Shown here piece by piece: positions 5,187 through 54,801 of a stretch of 64,000 nt of DNA. Source of the DNA: Escherichia phage LPEK22. The notes under the pieces are model-generated. The model made no database searches. It saw only the letters and a list, made by a program, of their open reading frames with translations, and was not told the DNA's origin. The stretch is taken from sequence record OK283619.1; one strand, given 5' to 3'. The first letter of the stretch is position 1. Each line of letters opens with the position of its first letter. A program made the translations under genes and the position numbers.

Positions 5187-7568
5187 ATGGCCATCCCATC
5201 TTTCTTGAACTTTCTTGAAGAGTCTAAACAATTAGACGAAGCGTTTAACTCATCCCCGTATGAATTGACATTCGGCAAGAAGAACGCTGGCGACATTTTC
5301 TTCACATTTGTTGATGAAGACGAAAAAGAATTCCGCATCCAATTTTATACCCCGCAGGGGCTGGGCAAGAACGTTCGTCAGGTCTTCATAGGCCAGAAAC
5401 GTGGTTCGACCTATCCAGACGCAATCGGTCGTTTCAAAAACCCAATGCGTGTCATCGCATCCATGATCGAAGCAACAAAGCAATTCATGGCGACGCCTTT
5501 GGGGAAAACCATTGACGGCTTTGCAATTAACTTCTCCAAGAAAGCATTGGAACGTGGTGTTACCCTCCTGCCGAAGATCATCCGTCAGTCCGGCCTGAAG
5601 CAGAAGCTCAATGTCATGGACCTGACGTATACCCCTATCCCTGATCGTGCATTCGTATGGGTTGTGCGTAAAGGTAAGGATCCTGCTCAGGTATTCGATG
5701 GTCCGAAAATGAAAGGCGTGACTTGGGACGACCCAGACAAAGTCGGTGACGTTCCTGACCAGAAAAATAATCCTGATGTGGGTGTATCATCTTCTGTTGA
5801 TGATTCCAACGGCTGGAAATTAACTTCAGACGGGAATCAGCCTATGATGATATGGAGTGGTAGAGAGAAAGGTCGCTTAGTCACGGCAAATATCGCCCCT
5901 CACTACAATGAGCCTGGTGTGTATGTTGGTGCCTACATGAATGAGAAATCTGTGCGCGGACAAAGTGCTGATTTTATTGCTCGTCAGTTGAAATTACCGC
6001 AAGTCCCTATCAGTATCCTGAATGATTTTACCACGGCGTCCACAAAATTCTGGAAAGGTTCTCAACAGAAATCTGCGCCTGTAGATTCCAACACCACAAT
6101 CGGTGCAACCAGCATCGAACAACTGATCGACAGCGGTTTCGTCGCCCGTGTGTTGGGTATCATTGATACCAACATTGATCAGAAAGCAAGCTACCTCCCA
6201 GGAGAAAGCATTAAGAAAATCGGACAGGCGCGTTATCAAACCAAAGGCGGTCTAGTGATCATTGTCAGCTTCGATTCGGTCGACGGTAAGAATCTGAAGT
6301 ACAGCGTGTTCTCTGAGATCGAAACTCAACCTGGTGTCATCTCTGGTGATGCTCGTCGGGTGGCAAACGAAGTCATGGAAACCATCACATACGTGGCTGA
6401 ACATCAGTATCGCGGTGAATGGGAAATCAACGCAGTGCCGATGAGCGCTCCATACCCTATCAAGTCCATCCGTCATTCTCGGGGCTGGGGCTATGTAGAG
6501 ACCGCAAATTGGACTCTGAAAATAGCCGATGCGGTTCTGAATCGCGTGAAACCAGGGAATACCGCTCTGTTGGAACTCAACAAAGAGCCTCTGCGCGGCA
6601 AGCACCTTCTGGAAATCATTCCAGAGAAGGGCGACAAGACTCTGATGCTAAAAGATCGCAGCGGAGCCATCTACGGTTCCATTGATCTGAATGCTCAGGG
6701 TGCGGATCTGGTCAACTCCGGAACCCTGAAAATCCCGAGCAACGCCATGGTATTTGGTGAGACTGTTAATGGTATGTCTGTCACATGGACTGGCGTCAAT
6801 TTCCCGAAAGGCGGGAAGTATGACGGCGCGGTGTTGACAACTAATGTGACCTATTACTACGACAAAGGTAAAGTAGCATTCACTCCGATGGTCTCTAACA
6901 AAGGTCGCACCCTGAACAATCCGAAAACATATGAACTTCCTTTGAAGAAAGAATTTGTTCAAGGTGTTCTTGATGATACCTCTGACGAGATGAGTATGGT
7001 GACGAGGAACATGCAGACCCTCGTCAGCACGAATTACAACCCGAAACAAGTCTTCCTCAATGATATCTACGTGGACGACAGCGGCGCGGTGCTCTGGCGC
7101 GGCCACAACATGGGTGATCGCCGTACGACAGAGATCATGCTAAACGCCATAAGCAAAGAAACCGAACGTCTGGAAAAAGAACCAGGGACTACCAAGAAGA
7201 CGGGTGTCGACCTCGCAACATATGCTGGTTCTATCCGCGACAATGCTCCGAAAGGGCGCGATCTGGATTGGCAGATCTATGCAAGCCGTGATGGTCAAAC
7301 ACTGAACGTGGACTGGGATATCACTTTCCGTCGCAATACGACCGAAGGAGCATATCGTGAATTCAAGGATCAGATCAACCGTGCCAACCAATACCTGCAA
7401 ACGGTATACAACGACGCGAAATCTAAAGGCTATAATCCTACCGTGCCAAATCTCATGACTCTTGAACGCGCTCGCCAATCCGACGAATGGGCTGTGAGTA
7501 ATGGTGATAGTGCATACAGTGAATATGAACAATCGCTGGGTGGTAATCTTCAGATTAGTCTGAAATAA
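5187..7568 (+). CDS. large hypothetical protein (793 aa)
   Basis: Long ORF with AGGAGA SD; no motif recognised. Confidence 0.6.
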   Translation: MAIPSFLNFLEESKQLDEAFNSSPYELTFGKKNAGDIFFTFVDEDEKEFRIQFYTPQGLGKNVRQVFIGQKRGSTYPDAIGRFKNPMRVIASMIEATKQFMATPLGKTIDGFAINFSKKALERGVTLLPKIIRQSGLKQKLNVMDLTYTPIPDRAFVWVVRKGKDPAQVFDGPKMKGVTWDDPDKVGDVPDQKNNPDVGVSSSVDDSNGWKLTSDGNQPMMIWSGREKGRLVTANIAPHYNEPGVYVGAYMNEKSVRGQSADFIARQLKLPQVPISILNDFTTASTKFWKGSQQKSAPVDSNTTIGATSIEQLIDSGFVARVLGIIDTNIDQKASYLPGESIKKIGQARYQTKGGLVIIVSFDSVDGKNLKYSVFSEIETQPGVISGDARRVANEVMETITYVAEHQYRGEWEINAVPMSAPYPIKSIRHSRGWGYVETANWTLKIADAVLNRVKPGNTALLELNKEPLRGKHLLEIIPEKGDKTLMLKDRSGAIYGSIDLNAQGADLVNSGTLKIPSNAMVFGETVNGMSVTWTGVNFPKGGKYDGAVLTTNVTYYYDKGKVAFTPMVSNKGRTLNNPKTYELPLKKEFVQGVLDDTSDEMSMVTRNMQTLVSTNYNPKQVFLNDIYVDDSGAVLWRGHNMGDRRTTEIMLNAISKETERLEKEPGTTKKTGVDLATYAGSIRDNAPKGRDLDWQIYASRDGQTLNVDWDITFRRNTTEGAYREFKDQINRANQYLQTVYNDAKSKGYNPTVPNLMTLERARQSDEWAVSNGDSAYSEYEQSLGGNLQISLK

Positions 7569-7619
7569 GTCATAGCCCCTTCGGGGGCTAAATACATCAA
7601 AATCCTTAGGAGATCCACG

Positions 7620-8189
7620 ATGAAACCGTTTATCGAATATTTTAAAGAACAAGCTCAACAACCGCAAACTCATGGCGGCATACAAGGCAAAAGTGTAACC
7701 ATCACCAAACAGGCCGACGGAACCCAATGGTGTACTGGTGCCACCGTGACCCAGATCACTCCAGATAATCAGGCCGACATCTATAATCTGGAATTGACTA
7801 ACGGCAACACCACCAAAGTAAAACTCACACCGGACCAGGTTCATGCGGTTTCTGTGGGCAAAGATGTTGTTGCCGTTCATGACGGTTTTGAGTTCTTCTT
7901 TGGGAAAGATGCCAGCAAAGGTCAGGTCACAGAATCCTATGCCCAAGAATTGGCGAACATGGATAAGATGATCGGTAAAGCGCTGGGCGTTGGCAAATCT
8001 CGTAAAAGCGGTCGTACAGAGTTTGAATATTCCGGTATTCCTGGTATTGGAAAACCTGTCGCAATCGACTTCGGCGGAGAAGACGATCCATATGTAATTG
8101 TCACAGTCGCTGGCAAACAGCATGACATCAGTAAGGGGAAAACCCTAGCTGCGGACATTGCCAAATATATTGGCGTTAAACCTGTCTAA
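7620..8189 (+). CDS. hypothetical protein (189 aa)
   Basis: ORF with SD TAGGAGA. Confidence 0.55.
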   Translation: MKPFIEYFKEQAQQPQTHGGIQGKSVTITKQADGTQWCTGATVTQITPDNQADIYNLELTNGNTTKVKLTPDQVHAVSVGKDVVAVHDGFEFFFGKDASKGQVTESYAQELANMDKMIGKALGVGKSRKSGRTEFEYSGIPGIGKPVAIDFGGEDDPYVIVTVAGKQHDISKGKTLAADIAKYIGVKPV

Positions 8190-49955: not shown

Positions 49956-49987
49956 GTTTGTCTCTCCCAATAAATTAAGGGGAAGTA

Positions 49988-50015
49988 TACCTTCCCCTTT
50001 CTTCAATAACCTAAA
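49988..50015 (-). terminator. rho-independent terminator (minus strand)
   Basis: Minus strand GGGGAAG-loop-CTTCCCC followed by TTAATTTATT. Confidence 0.5.
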
Positions 50016-50018
50016 ATA

Positions 50019-50369
50019 TTATTCAGTACATGCTTTACCGAGGTCTGTAAGCCTATAGAATGTTACTTCAGACTTCGGCCAATGCTTATACTCTTCAGAG
50101 TTGTCATGAACCATTGTAAACGCAGGTTCTATCAGACCTTTAGACAACAAGGATTGACCTGAACGCGTATCCCATGGATCACCCTTTACAGAACGAAACC
50201 CGCCAGATATCGGTGGCGCATGAAAAGTCCAAACCGTTTTCCCTTTATCGTTCGTCCAAGATTTGGGATTGAAATACCAATGACAAAGGCGTCTAGCTTC
50301 ACCTTTTTCAAAATTCAACATTCCTAAAAGGACGCAGAGTTGATGTCCTGTGATGCGTGGCTTTTTCAT
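50019..50369 (-). CDS. hypothetical protein (116 aa)
   Basis: ORF. Confidence 0.45.
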   Translation of the reverse strand: MKKPRITGHQLCVLLGMLNFEKGEARRLCHWYFNPKSWTNDKGKTVWTFHAPPISGGFRSVKGDPWDTRSGQSLLSKGLIEPAFTMVHDNSEEYKHWPKSEVTFYRLTDLGKACTE

Positions 50370-50698
50370 AAGATCCCCAAGTCAGTAAGGTAACGATAAA
50401 ACAAGATTATAGACAGAAATCCAATTAACACCCAAGACGACAGGATGGGCTTGCAATTTAGCGTAGTCTTTCCATTGGGTATGTTGGGACTTCCGGTAAT
50501 AACGACGGAGTCTGTTTTGGCTCTCAGCGTCATGACAGAACCCATGAGGATGATTGGGCGCACATAATGCCCTTCATGATTGCGCTTCACGATACATGGT
50601 GAAGAAAATCGCAGGAACGGATCACCGCTTTTATAACCAAATAACTCGACCTTTTGTATTTCTTCGGGTACTTTCTGACCAGGAAAGAATATTCTCAT
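50366..50698 (-). CDS. hypothetical protein with C-terminal TM segment (110 aa)
   Basis: ORF; C-terminal [13 protein letters not shown]. Confidence 0.45.
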
Positions 50699-51255
50699 AA
50701 CACAATTCCTAAATTTGTGTATAATAACTCAGCCAGGGTTACAGGACGCTTGAATTGTTCCCAACTGCAGTTCAGGTATTCGCGCTCTTCGCGAATATTT
50801 TCGTGAAGATGACCATGGATATTATACGCCCAACGGTCTAATTGATAAGGAACATGTGTTGTCAACACACGGCCAACAGGCGTGTCACGTTCATACATAG
50901 CGCCGAAGGAGCTAATCCAGCCGTCCAGATACAGAGACAACAACATCTTAAAGCTGTCATGGTTGCCTTGTGCCACCTTGATGATAAAGTTCGGACGCCA
51001 GTCATCGGGAACGGGGCGTCGCTTAAACTCATCAATGTTTCGCTTGGCACCCTCCCGCATCAGGCGAATGAACCCTTCAGCCCCGATGAAGCATATATCA
51101 CCAGCCAGTTCAAGAACGTCCCGAGACTTCAACCCCTGAAAGATACTGTCAATGACCGCAGCGTCATGGGCTTCCTGTGTATCAAATCCACGCGGTTTAA
51201 AGACCTTCTTATGCCCAAGATGAGTGTCACCAAGGTGCTTTACAATTCCCGCCAT
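50695..51255 (-). CDS. calcineurin-like metallophosphoesterase
   Basis: Motifs [22 protein letters not shown]; start at internal ATG giving TGATG coupling. Confidence 0.6.
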
Positions 51256-51596
51256 TATGGTTTCCTCAGCCATTCTAAAATCGGCACGTTCACAAACCCT
51301 TTATGCCAACGATGCGGTTTGTGACCTCTATTATGTTCGAGCAAACACGTGTCTGGTGGGACACTGAAGTGGATGCCTTCGATGTCGTAGTAATGTCCGT
51401 CAATCAGAGTATACACATGACCTTCGATCTGGCTGTAATGGATCTCTGCTTGAGGATACACATGCTTCAGAACCAGAGCAACCTGATAGCACTTTCCGTT
51501 CTTCCCAACATACTCAACATCCACCTGTTGTGGGAAGACGTCTTTGATAAGATTTATCAATCTCGTGATGTCATTTACAACAACTGAACGTTTCAT
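51255..51596 (-). CDS. hypothetical protein (113 aa)
   Basis: ORF. Confidence 0.45.
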
Positions 51597-51598
51597 CT

Positions 51599-52261
51599 CT
51601 ATGATAACTCATGGCGATGTCGAACACACGCAGGGCAATCACAATTCTTTTTCAAAATTGGCAATTCACACCATGTCATTAAGTCATGTATTGGGGACAT
51701 GTGATGATAGAACCAAGATTTCTTGAGACTAATCAATGGATATAAAATTTCAATAGGTCTTTCCCCGTCTCTGGTCATCATGTTGTACCCTTCAATGACT
51801 TTATTAAAGGCGGGTATCCAGTGTATTGCGTCATCGCCGTTAACATATGCCAATATATACGTGGAAGGCAAGCTCCTGCCTTTAAATTGCGTGTTTAATA
51901 ACCATATCGGGGCTTGTGCTAAACAAGAGCGAAAACCACCGTTCGGGACGTTGATGCTACTGATAGGTTCTTGATGATGTGTCCAACGATACATGAGAAG
52001 TGGGGCATTTTTATTAATCCAGTTGTGTATTTTATTCCTCGCCCAATTTTCGCGCTTAGATTTAAATTTATTATTTTCGAGGTGGCAATACACAGTATGA
52101 ACTGAATATCCTTTCGATAACAACCAAATCAACATGTATGTGCTATCCACCCCACCAGACCAGAACAACGTCACTTCTTGATTATTCTCCGGTAATGGAG
52201 CATCCCCTTGAAGAACACGGTATACAAAATCACAATCAGATATTGAGACAACAATTTCCAT
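51599..52261 (-). CDS. QueC-like PP-loop ATPase (7-cyano-7-deazaguanine synthase family) with divergent active-site region
   Basis: PP-loop FWSGGVDST; C-terminal Cys cluster WCELPILKKNCDCPAC parallels QueC zinc site as recalled; central GVCETDFSGYPDCR-equivalent region replaced. Confidence 0.6.
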   Translation of the reverse strand: MEIVVSISDCDFVYRVLQGDAPLPENNQEVTLFWSGGVDSTYMLIWLLSKGYSVHTVYCHLENNKFKSKRENWARNKIHNWINKNAPLLMYRWTHHQEPISSINVPNGGFRSCLAQAPIWLLNTQFKGRSLPSTYILAYVNGDDAIHWIPAFNKVIEGYNMMTRDGERPIEILYPLISLKKSWFYHHMSPIHDLMTWCELPILKKNCDCPACVRHRHELS

Positions 52262-52557
52262 TAAAATATTCCTCTTAAAGAATCATTTATCCTGCGCAAT
52301 TCGTTTTCCACTTTTATCTTCATATTTTTATCGTCGTTCACGAAAATCATTTTATCTAAATCTTCGCCATTAATCTTTGTATAAAAATAAATGTCATGCT
52401 CAAAGAAAATCGTTTTTCCAACAGAACGCATGGCAAAGAACGTTGCGATAGTTCTTGATAAAGGTTTGAATTTAATGGCATTGAAACGCAAAGCCTGATA
52501 GAGAGGTTTTAATGTTCCTAAGCGAATACAATGCTGGATAATTTCTTGCTCTTTCAT
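52261..52557 (-). CDS. hypothetical protein (98 aa)
   Basis: ORF. Confidence 0.45.
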   Translation of the reverse strand: MKEQEIIQHCIRLGTLKPLYQALRFNAIKFKPLSRTIATFFAMRSVGKTIFFEHDIYFYTKINGEDLDKMIFVNDDKNMKIKVENELRRINDSLRGIF

Positions 52558-52595
52558 TTGTTGTGCGCCATAAAGATATGATGGTACAATGATAA

Positions 52596-52630
52596 TACAT
52601 TATACAAATAGAAAAGCCCCTTTCGGGGCT
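52596..52630 (-). terminator. rho-independent terminator (minus strand)
   Basis: Minus strand AGCCCC-GAAA-GGGGCT followed by TTTCTATTTG. Confidence 0.55.
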
Positions 52631-52920
52631 TATTTGTCTTCAGATTCGTACAAACGCCAATTGCCGATGCTAAACCATTCCCCCACATTATTTGAATATC
52701 TGGTTGTTCGGACTCCTCCGACTTCATACGCCCATTTGAAGAATTTCCATTTGGACGATAAAGAAGGGCATTCGCTTCCGGATTTCAAAGAACACGCTGT
52801 GAGCCAACGCGTAATACTGAGAGCCTGAAAAATCGGATGGATAAATGAAGAATACAATATCCAAAGCGTTATGGCAACAAAAACAATGGTCGTGATCACC
52901 CCGACAATTTGAAAGAACAT
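52630..52920 (-). CDS. small membrane protein (96 aa)
   Basis: N-terminal TM VGVITTIVFVAITLWILYSSF. Confidence 0.4.
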   Translation of the reverse strand: MFFQIVGVITTIVFVAITLWILYSSFIHPIFQALSITRWLTACSLKSGSECPSLSSKWKFFKWAYEVGGVRTTRYSNNVGEWFSIGNWRLYESEDK

Positions 52921-53629: not shown

Positions 53630-53966
53630 CAGTTTCCCCTGCTTTCTCTAAAAGAAGTTTCAAAGGATATGTCCCACAAGCGGTGGCATACTCGACTTTG
53701 AAATATGAATTATCGTTCATGGCGAAATTTCGATGTGGGAAATATTCCCCGTCATCCAACCCGCCTAATCCCCCGCCGACGCGATATTGTTTTAACTCGA
53801 CTTCGCCGCCATAACGGAGTTGGGCATATAGGCCGATAGGAGCGCGAACATAATGCTCCAGCCATACCCAATTTCCATCGTGTAAACGTGTAGGGATAAA
53901 TGCAAAACGCACCTTGGGATGAAGAACGGCTTTGGCGAGCATCTCTTCTGTTATTTCACGCTTCAT
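53622..53966 (-). CDS. hypothetical protein (114 aa)
   Basis: ORF. Confidence 0.45.
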   Translation of the reverse strand: MKREITEEMLAKAVLHPKVRFAFIPTRLHDGNWVWLEHYVRAPIGLYAQLRYGGEVELKQYRVGGGLGGLDDGEYFPHRNFAMNDNSYFKVEYATACGTYPLKLLLEKAGETDV

Positions 53967-54568
53967 CCAATACCTTCCTCTTCGATGATATCTTCTTCAC
54001 TAGCGACGACAGAGATTCCGTAGTCTACCATCTGGGAAAGTTCTTGTAAATCTTGTTCAAACCCGTCACCCTGTCGGATATAAAAGACGGGTACGACACG
54101 ACGCCTGGTATCTTCGAAGATAGTATCTGCGATTTTATTAATCTGGCTCACCACATGAAACAGTTTCAATCCACCGATGCCACAGCCGATGGCGGGTAAA
54201 CCAACATAGACTGTTTCGTCAGTTTTTGCCTCAATGATATCGTGAACTTGTTCAAACATAATCTGAACTGAACTGATAATGGAAGGCATGCGTGCGTTAG
54301 GACCAGGGTAGAACTGAGTGTACAAATTGAATCCCCAGACACCAGTGTCATGATCAAACGCATAGGACATGTTCCCCAAACGTTGTTCCGGACCACGTTC
54401 ATCTAATTGGTCGGCTCGGTAAATTTCTGGGAAATCTAATCGAACATGGTTGGCGATACCTGCGCCCATCACAGACCAACAATTTGCGCCATGAGCGAAA
54501 GCATTGATGAGATTAAAACTCGTAGCGGCTTTCAGTAAATCGCCGTTTGTGATAACATATGTGGTCAT
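53963..54568 (-). CDS. macro-domain protein (ADP-ribose binding / hydrolase-like)
   Basis: INAFAHGANCWSVMGAGIA resembles macro-domain NAAN...GGGV motif; ATGA coupling at chosen start. Confidence 0.6.
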   Translation of the reverse strand: MTTYVITNGDLLKAATSFNLINAFAHGANCWSVMGAGIANHVRLDFPEIYRADQLDERGPEQRLGNMSYAFDHDTGVWGFNLYTQFYPGPNARMPSIISSVQIMFEQVHDIIEAKTDETVYVGLPAIGCGIGGLKLFHVVSQINKIADTIFEDTRRRVVPVFYIRQGDGFEQDLQELSQMVDYGISVVASEEDIIEEEGIG

Positions 54569-54801
54569 GCGTAACGTCTCCATTGTATAATTTCGTTGTT
54601 GACACAGCTAACCTGGATGATACACATATTCTGGCGATGGTCAGTGAGTGTCATAATAAAACTGTCTGTCTGTGCCATAACGCAATTGACAGATATTCCT
54701 CGCATTATCAAACGAACACAGATTTCTTGATATAATCGTTTCATGTATCCTGAAACTGAAGCGGACTCATACACGCGTTCAAATTCATATAACTCGTTCA
54801 T
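54565..54801 (-). CDS. hypothetical protein (78 aa)
   Basis: ORF. Confidence 0.4.
   Translation of the reverse strand: MNELYEFERVYESASVSGYMKRLYQEICVRLIMRGISVNCVMAQTDSFIMTLTDHRQNMCIIQVSCVNNEIIQWRRYA

Follow-up and report, generated by a model that had tools for sequence, protein, structure and literature searches.

The QueC-like gene of phage LPEK22

A 64,000-nucleotide stretch of Escherichia phage LPEK22 (sequence record OK283619.1), referred to here as the window, carries an open reading frame (ORF) whose 220-amino-acid product is a QueC-like PP-loop protein (Table 1). By profile comparison, this protein belongs to a viral clade of the QueC superfamily that lies closer to the immunity enzyme Cap9 than to QueC itself. 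SFP_0023, its ortholog in Salmonella phage SFP10, is annotated as "QueC-like queuosine biosynthesis", and YP_009101458 of phage ECML-4, a Kuttervirus, is its syntenic ortholog. Over 4 kb surrounding the gene, the DNA is 99.8% identical to that of S117, kage, and SFP10, three Salmonella phages of the genus Kuttervirus (Ackermannviridae); the window is Kuttervirus DNA of the ViI/SFP10/S117 type. The plus-strand frame at the same position contains many stop codons. The start codon of the gene overlaps the stop codon of the upstream gene (TAATG) and is preceded by a ribosome-binding site, AGAGGA. Comparison with a 91%-identical ortholog gave a synonymous divergence (dS) of 1.26 and a nonsynonymous divergence (dN) of 0.039; because dN/dS is 0.03, the ORF is a genuine gene, subject to strong purifying selection.

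Table 1. Positions in the window of the QueC-like gene, of the motifs in its product, and of the surrounding features.
Feature	Residues	Position	Strand	Remarks
QueC-like ORF, 220 amino acids		51599–52261	minus	ATG start; phrog_1550; ortholog of SFP10 SFP_0023 and ECML-4 YP_009101458
PP-loop FWSGGVDST	33–41	52139–52165	minus	SGGVDS at residues 35–40
YCHLENNKFKSKRE	58–71	52049–52090	minus	Counterpart of QueC YxQxHxxE and Cap9 [YF]xQx5E
LAQ	114–116	51914–51922	minus	L114 aligns with Cap9 L83
YVNGDDAIHW	139–148	51818–51847	minus	Family motif GYV[ML][NG]D[DC]AIS[YFW]; continues as IPA to residue 151
PLISLKK	175–181	51719–51739	minus	P175 and K181 correspond to the QueC K165/Cap9 PFx4K motif
WCELPILKKNCDCPAC	197–212	51626–51673	minus	Four-Cys zinc-type motif, colinear with QueC and Cap9
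98-amino-acid gene, upstream		52261–52557	minus	phrog_9302; function unassigned in the family; stop overlaps the QueC-like start
113-amino-acid YunG-like gene, downstream		51255–51596	minus	PF24591; begins 2 nucleotides past the QueC-like stop
192-amino-acid metallophosphoesterase gene		50695–51273	minus	phrog_547; second gene downstream
dCMP deaminase gene, 175 amino acids		48699–49226		About 2.4 kb downstream of the QueC-like gene
206-amino-acid protein gene		53963–54583	minus	phrog_335 'phosphatase'; no Pfam match
Terminator-like hairpin with T-run		52631–52614	minus	
Terminator-like hairpin with T-run		49999–49977	minus	

Placement within the QueC superfamily

The protein matches phrog_1550 over its full length (residues 1–219, E 1.3e-81). 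As a single sequence, it passed the Pfam QueC model PF06508 marginally (23.9 bits, cut-off 22) over residues 33–76 only, scored 18.4 bits against TIGR00364, far under the equivalog cut-off of 150.3, and retrieved PP-loop-level matches only (E > 0.1) from the Protein Data Bank (PDB). The full-length relationship is visible because a family profile was used in place of the single sequence. The family alignment comprises 66 diverse relatives, to which the residue counts given below refer, and all of them match both phrog_1550 and Pfam QueC (best E 1e-12). In hmmsearch against the PDB, the profile matched Bacillus subtilis QueC (E 4e-12) and Cap9 (E 1e-10) over their full length, and TtuA in its N-terminal part only (E 3e-6).

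Pairwise profile alignment with hhalign gave a probability of 98.85 (E 4e-17, score 111.6) for a 23-sequence Cap9 profile and 98.1 (score 84.6) for the single Cap9 sequence, compared with 96.7 (score 65.3) for B. subtilis QueC and 95.2 (score 55.5) for Escherichia coli QueC; the Cap9 profile itself aligned to E. coli QueC with a score of 100.3. The PADLOC 'QueC' model matched 21 of 22 relatives (best E 9e-17), and the QatC models of PADLOC (E 0.003) and NCBIfam matched one of the 22 each. On these comparisons, the protein falls in a QueC-superfamily clade whose nearest characterized relatives are Cap9 and QueC, Cap9 being the closer.

Residues retained and lost in the active site

The signature of canonical QueC and its mutagenesis in E. 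coli have been reported by Libby et al. 2026 (PMC13329287): the mutants Y35A, R99A, Y131A, and Y189A are all inactive. QueC and Cap9 both adenylate 7-carboxy-7-deazaguanine (CDG). According to the papers on the Cap9–CdnD structure and on QatC, Cap9 D117 forms hydrogen bonds with N1 and N2 of CDG, stacking contacts with the base come from Y115 and R86, and L83 makes a backbone contact; Y129 and D131 of B. subtilis QueC are the equivalents of Cap9 Y115 and D117. The 66-sequence alignment yields a family signature of W-SGGxDST, Y..[IL].NN..[KQ]..RE..A, L.Q, GYV[ML][NG]D[DC]AIS[YFW], FPL....K, and WCE(x6-9)C(x1-2)CxxC.[RK].

The PP-loop described in the earlier note on this DNA is present, with G36, G37, D39, and S40 invariant and W34, S35, and T41 found in 62, 64, and 63 of the 66 relatives, respectively. 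The YxQxHxxE motif of QueC is not intact. When mapped through the Cap9 alignment, L61 (Ile or Leu in 57/66) replaces the essential Tyr, N63 replaces the Gln, and the His is gone, with the Glu kept as E71. VPxRN is also lost, since Q116-A117 align with R99-N100 in the alignments to both E. coli QueC and Cap9. Q116 (59/66) is thus located at the site of QueC R99 and Cap9 R86, the stacking Arg that is essential in QueC.

The center of the protein lacks a loop of 4–6 residues, the one in which Cap9 (Y115) and E. coli QueC (Y131) carry the stacking Tyr, and YPDC is not intact. The Cap9-based profile alignment pairs D143 (65/66) with the Asp that reads the base (D117 in Cap9, D131 in B. subtilis QueC); W148 (aromatic in 61/66) falls on the Phe of DCxxxF, a motif common to QueC and Cap9. 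Retention of the base-reading Asp as D143 would follow from the Cap9 alignments only, which score better. The earlier note held that the central segment of QueC (GVCETDFSGYPDC) has been replaced here; this is right for the deleted loop but not for the whole segment, in which D143 and W148 align, through Cap9, with QueC and Cap9 residues.

Toward the C-terminus, K181, the equivalent of QueC K165, is invariant in all 66 relatives. The four-Cys cluster does mirror that of QueC, as had been noted, because WCELPILKKNCDCPAC is colinear with the QueC zinc motif, although its spacing is C198-x8-C207-x-C209-x2-C212 rather than C-x8-C-x2-C-x2-C. The four Cys, each conserved in 64–66 of the 66 relatives, form a predicted metal site. 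The CxC spacing belongs to the Kuttervirus subfamily and is one residue short, the wider family having the canonical CxxC, and in the homolog of Serratia phage Kevin (P0020) the first Cys is gone and three are left. E199 (63/66) corresponds to the lid residue of the 'CE' motif in Cap9 and takes the place of the essential Y189 of QueC. Collectively, these alignments indicate that the predicted substrate pocket is remodeled, not erased.

The same cluster could be read differently. Three of the Cys are invariant across the family at the positions aligned with the QueC zinc motif, and Foldseek returned matches to TtuA; in an Fe-S thiolase of the TtuA/NcsA/ThiI/YcfA type, a class that also includes TtcA, three Cys would hold a [4Fe-4S] cluster and sulfur would be delivered to an adenylated carbonyl of a tRNA base or nucleotide. 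However, the full-length profile alignments place the Cys colinear with the structural zinc motif of QueC and Cap9, and the thiolase matches are limited to the N-terminal PP-loop region. Neither a THUMP domain nor another RNA-binding domain was found in the protein, the predicted isoelectric point of which is 8.1, and no gene for a sulfur-carrier partner accompanies it. A thiolase is unlikely.

The database label invites a further reading, that of a divergent true QueC converting host CDG to 7-cyano-7-deazaguanine (preQ0), or only to 7-amido-7-deazaguanine, for queuosine or for 7-deazaguanine DNA modification. The RefSeq/PHROG label 'QueC-like queuosine biosynthesis' and the marginal Pfam match agree with it, as do the length, zinc motif, Lys, and base-reading Asp, and the host makes CDG. 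Yet the TIGR00364 score falls far short of the equivalog threshold, and all four residues essential in E. coli QueC (PMC13329287) are changed: Y35 to Ile/Leu, R99 to Gln, Y131 by deletion, and Y189 to Glu. Because of these changes, preQ0 synthase activity is very unlikely. Moreover, none of queD, queE, folE, tgt (tRNA-guanine transglycosylase), or dpdA is annotated in the whole 157,950-bp genome of SFP10, 99.8% identical over the compared stretch, so that the lack of such partners remarked on in the earlier note extends beyond the window. The literature consulted describes the DNA of Ackermannviridae as modified at thymidine, to 5-(2-aminoethoxy)methyl-2'-deoxyuridine (5-NeOmdU), with no mention of 7-deazaguanine there. 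Finally, Hutinet et al. 2019 (PMC6884629) separated ECML-4 YP_009101458 from QueC as a singleton, likely of another N-type ATP pyrophosphatase subfamily. We consider a true QueC very improbable. The earlier note is thus borne out in describing a stand-alone QueC-like PP-loop ATPase with an altered substrate site: the alignments reveal no complete QueC active site, and the best matches are to QueC and Cap9, not to TilS or NadE.

Comparison with QueC, Cap9, and QatC

The phage protein shares with canonical QueC its length and fold, a full-length colinear alignment, SGGxDS, the Lys (K165, here K181), and the Cys4 motif. It differs in that the counterparts of Y35, H39, R99, Y131, and Y189 are changed or deleted, and in the absence of linkage to queD, queE, or folE.

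Cap9 of type IV CBASS (an anti-phage signaling system based on cyclic oligonucleotides; PDB 9NTO, chain B) is defined by the motifs LxSGGxDS, [YF]xQx5E, RN, Hx4YxDCxxxF, PFx4K, and CEx6CxxCxxC. It joins CDG to the amine of Gly2 in a partner protein. Among these, the phage protein likewise has the PP-loop, a PLx4K and a CEx7CxCxxC motif, and the half-motif D[DC]xxx[YFW]. In contrast, the four-residue TPYY loop with Tyr115 is deleted, so that Hx4Y is missing; Arg86-Asn87 are replaced by Gln-Ala; and [IL]xN stands where Cap9 has F44xQ46, the Glu lying two residues farther on. Cap9 is encoded beside a CD-NTase and the TGT-like Cap10 in defense islands, whereas the phage gene is virus-encoded and has neither of them.

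The affinity to Cap9 and the common CE motif raise the possibility of a Cap9-like conjugation, in which host CDG or a similar acid would be ligated to a protein N-terminus (or a macromolecular amine) of phage or host origin. The conjugation would serve a process of the phage itself or the subversion of type IV CBASS or QatABCD, and it would be a special case of the ligase activity proposed below, with the acceptor fixed. Against it, a CD-NTase, Cap10, or QatB-like partner is missing, and the stacking Tyr and Arg with which Cap9 holds the nucleobase are gone. A small protein encoded upstream in other phages is lineage-specific and unrelated to the Kuttervirus neighbors. The gene is also near-universal in the matched Kuttervirus records and stands beside replication genes in uncultured phages, which is atypical of accessory anti-defense genes. 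In the literature searched, neither an anti-CBASS or anti-Qat role nor a characterized phage QueC-like or PP-loop enzyme was found, and the only reported anti-Qat genes are the rIIA/rIIB-like genes of Bas63. Such conjugation is possible but unlikely.

QatC, from the QatABCD system, is likewise a QueC-family protein with a remodeled CDG-recognition motif that keeps the PP-loop and the zinc site. At about 400 amino acids, it is however longer than the phage protein, which has 220; it is extended at both termini, contains a Var3 loop of 27 residues, and bears the motif C(x)19CGxCxxRR. In QatC, both the Tyr and the Asp are replaced by Thr. It is encoded with QatA, QatB, and QatD, and no Qat genes are present near the phage gene.

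Distribution of the clade

A tblastn search found the gene in 195 phage records, 192 of them with a coverage of at least 80%, including nearly all matched Kuttervirus records. With phmmer against 1.84 billion cluster representatives (50% identity), 498 relatives were retrieved at E ≤ 1e-3 and 105 at E ≤ 1e-10, most of them spanning residues ~30–215. Cultured Ackermannviridae with relatives belong to Kuttervirus, Taipeivirus, Miltonvirus, and Campanilevirus. Relatives also occur in the jumbo phages Noxifer and PA1C of Pseudomonas and RSF1 of Ralstonia, in a Saccharomonospora phage, and, in IMG/VR, on viral contigs of 50–370 kb. The family thus reaches many unrelated large phages, Chimalliviridae-type jumbo phages among them.

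In cellular genomes, a pattern scan that covered 185,579 species of bacteria and archaea, each represented by a single genome, detected four loci only, and the clade is essentially restricted to viruses within the reach of a scan that needs exact matches to degenerate patterns. The sole full-length cellular homolog (L081:7896-8582) is located on the metagenome chromosome OW818669.1 and is 43% identical to an IMG/VR member. It lies divergently beside WD40-repeat and CHASE2 genes there. Because two insertion sequence (IS) copies adjoin it, acquisition through a mobile element is suggested. The cellular loci were dropped as a functional clue, the WD40/CHASE2 and IS context of the full-length homolog being uninformative.

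Some relatives carry C-terminal extensions of 100–200 amino acids, including those of Vibrio phage YC (L079:5944-6909) and Noxifer (L080:5983-6963) and the sequences P0046, P0131, and P0151. No significant Pfam domain was found in the extensions of 10 long relatives; sub-threshold hints were to a helix-turn-helix and, in P0151, to HAD_SAK_2, an RNA-repair HAD domain (E 0.003).

Gene neighborhood and search for partners

The QueC-like gene lies within a run of six overlapping or abutting minus-strand genes bounded by the two terminator-like hairpins: phrog_9302, the QueC-like gene, the YunG-like gene, the metallophosphoesterase, which is the second gene downstream as the earlier note had it, and, further downstream, genes for a DUF7618 protein and a 116-amino-acid protein (phrog_4677). 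This block (49977–52631) looks like one translationally coupled unit. A promoter scan found no convincing sigma-70 promoter for it, and sigma-70-like sites were not commoner than in shuffled sequences.

Further upstream are genes for DexA and for a DarG-like macro-domain protein. For the latter, the 206-amino-acid protein of Table 1, the PDB yielded macro domains of the DarG/YmdB type (5m3i, E 1e-4; 7omu; 5m31); judged from these matches, it could be a de-ADP-ribosylase acting against a DarT-like defense. Outside the window, SFP10 encodes tRNA-Met(CAT), tRNA-Asn(GTT), tRNA-Ser(GCT), and a pseudo-tRNA at positions 137450–138860. Its tRNA-Asn(GUU) is a queuosine-type tRNA, and the tRNA with the CAT anticodon could be a lysidine-type tRNA-Ile.

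The early region, with its dCMP deaminase, DexA, and MazG-like genes, might suggest an accessory role in the thymidine hypermodification of Ackermannviridae, from 5-hydroxymethyl-2'-deoxyuridine (5-hmdU) to 5-NeOmdU, or in its nucleotide pool. In Serratia phage phiMAM1 the QueC-like gene lies, in a different order, between a phosphoesterase and a dCMP deaminase one gene away, and the O-serinyl-thymidine intermediate of the pathway bears a carboxylate. The dCMP deaminase of phiMAM1 (7042–7977, downstream) has 311 amino acids and hence an extra region compared with that in the window. Kuttervirus DNA does carry 5-NeOmdU, but, with 5-hmdU DNA as the starting material, this base was rebuilt in vitro by no more than the gp67/gp243 kinase, gp247 (a serine:DNA transferase), and gp226, a pyridoxal phosphate (PLP) decarboxylase (PMC8989533). 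The QueC-like gene lies outside the modification cluster and is not among the listed pathway enzymes (5-HMUDK, aGPT-Pplase, PLP decarboxylase) (PMC8989533). Furthermore, the family occurs in many large phages unrelated to Ackermannviridae. There is at best a slight chance that the protein serves this pathway. The nucleic-acid substrate raised as a possibility in the earlier note likewise finds no support as regards modification of phage DNA, the phage ViI 5-NeOmdU pathway having been reconstituted without a QueC-like protein (PMC8989533).

For the partner search, ORFs were clustered from 77 IMG/VR loci. In one uncultured large-phage lineage (L020, L025–L030, L034–L057, L069; around position 8000), the QueC-like gene lies in about 25 loci between genes for an SNF2 helicase and PolB, a family-B DNA polymerase, in the order SNF2 helicase, a 120-amino-acid protein (F2), QueC-like, a PolB of ~1200 amino acids, and, further on, a Nudix-domain protein. 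The N-terminus of F2 reads M[GA]xxYxWxxNP[FL]xD, and the Gly/Ala after the Met recalls the substrates of Cap9 and QatC. F2 was rejected as a general partner, since it is confined to this single syntenic lineage and is unrelated to the Kuttervirus neighbors (hhalign probability 0.1). Campanilevirus YC, Noxifer, and phiMAM1 have other genes beside the QueC-like gene, and, among the lineages examined, linkage to the metallophosphoesterase occurs only in the two Ackermannviridae genera Kuttervirus and Miltonvirus. In every lineage examined, the neighbors are phage early or replication genes. Because no pathway genes are annotated and no partner is conserved across lineages, the predicted substrate must either come from the host or be some common macromolecule.

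Proposed function

According to a review (PMC13376578), the PP-loop ATP pyrophosphatases characterized so far all attach AMP to the oxygen of a carboxyl or keto group before a nitrogen or sulfur nucleophile is accepted. By analogy with these relatives, from which the proposed catalysis, chemistry, and substrate class are taken, the phage protein may be a zinc-stabilized adenylate-forming ligase whose first substrate is a heterocyclic acid that differs from CDG or is bound unlike it, and whose acceptor is an amine; we hold this proposal with moderate confidence. ATP would be bound through SGGxDS, as in all characterized relatives. AMP would then be transferred to a carboxyl (or keto) oxygen of the first substrate with release of pyrophosphate, and in the last step a nitrogen nucleophile would take the place of AMP, giving an amide-type bond. 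Candidates for the acceptor amine are ammonia, a metabolite, and the N-terminus of a protein. Since the Asp and the Cap9-type Glu are kept and the stacking pair of Tyr and Arg is lost, the probable first substrate is a heterocyclic acid from the host, either one other than CDG or one bound in another manner. The earlier note was right to look beyond the canonical QueC reaction; a small-molecule or nucleic-acid substrate, which it put forward as a possibility, has no more in its favor than a protein or an amine as acceptor, because the nearest relative, Cap9, is a protein-conjugating enzyme.

Several points weigh against this ligase proposal and the observations behind it. The hhalign alignment with E. 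coli QueC places D144, with low confidence, on the Asp of an upstream ETD, and D143 pairs with the YPDC Asp only through Cap9. No partner gene hinting at the substrate recurs across lineages in the 77 IMG/VR loci, YC, Noxifer, and phiMAM1, and divergent cellular members could escape the pattern scan. In the literature searched, no experimental study of any member of the clade was found. The QatC papers describe a comparable case, a remodeled QueC-family pocket whose substrate has stayed elusive even with crystal structures.

Significance

The gene was already catalogued and its non-QueC nature is already in print; it is not a new kind of system. Hutinet et al. 2019 set the gene aside, and a family description, a residue mapping, and a function are not given there. 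New here are the size of the clade and its near-restriction to viruses, its closer affinity to Cap9 than to QueC, and the account, residue by residue, of what is kept and lost. No surprising mechanism is demonstrated so far.

QueC-family enzymes have recently been shown to go beyond preQ0 synthesis: Cap9, and probably QatC as well, act in immunity against phages by attaching a group to the N-termini of proteins. A large, conserved clade with Cap9 as its nearest relative, found almost only in viruses, in therapeutically relevant Ackermannviridae and in jumbo phages, may be a further branch of this story. It is conceivable, if rather unlikely, that these proteins are viral equivalents of Cap9. 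As nucleobase- (or acyl-) to-amine ligases, they would draw on a host acid of the 7-deazaguanine pathway, or on a heterocyclic acid akin to it, and attach it as a tag to proteins or amines of the phage or the host, for replication or for jamming QueC-family immunity (type IV CBASS, QatABCD). If so, it would be the first virus-encoded deazaguanylation-type modification enzyme. Knowledge of the substrate could reveal a new metabolic or counter-defense reaction of phages, and it would also correct the "queuosine biosynthesis" misannotation that is widespread in hundreds of phage genomes.

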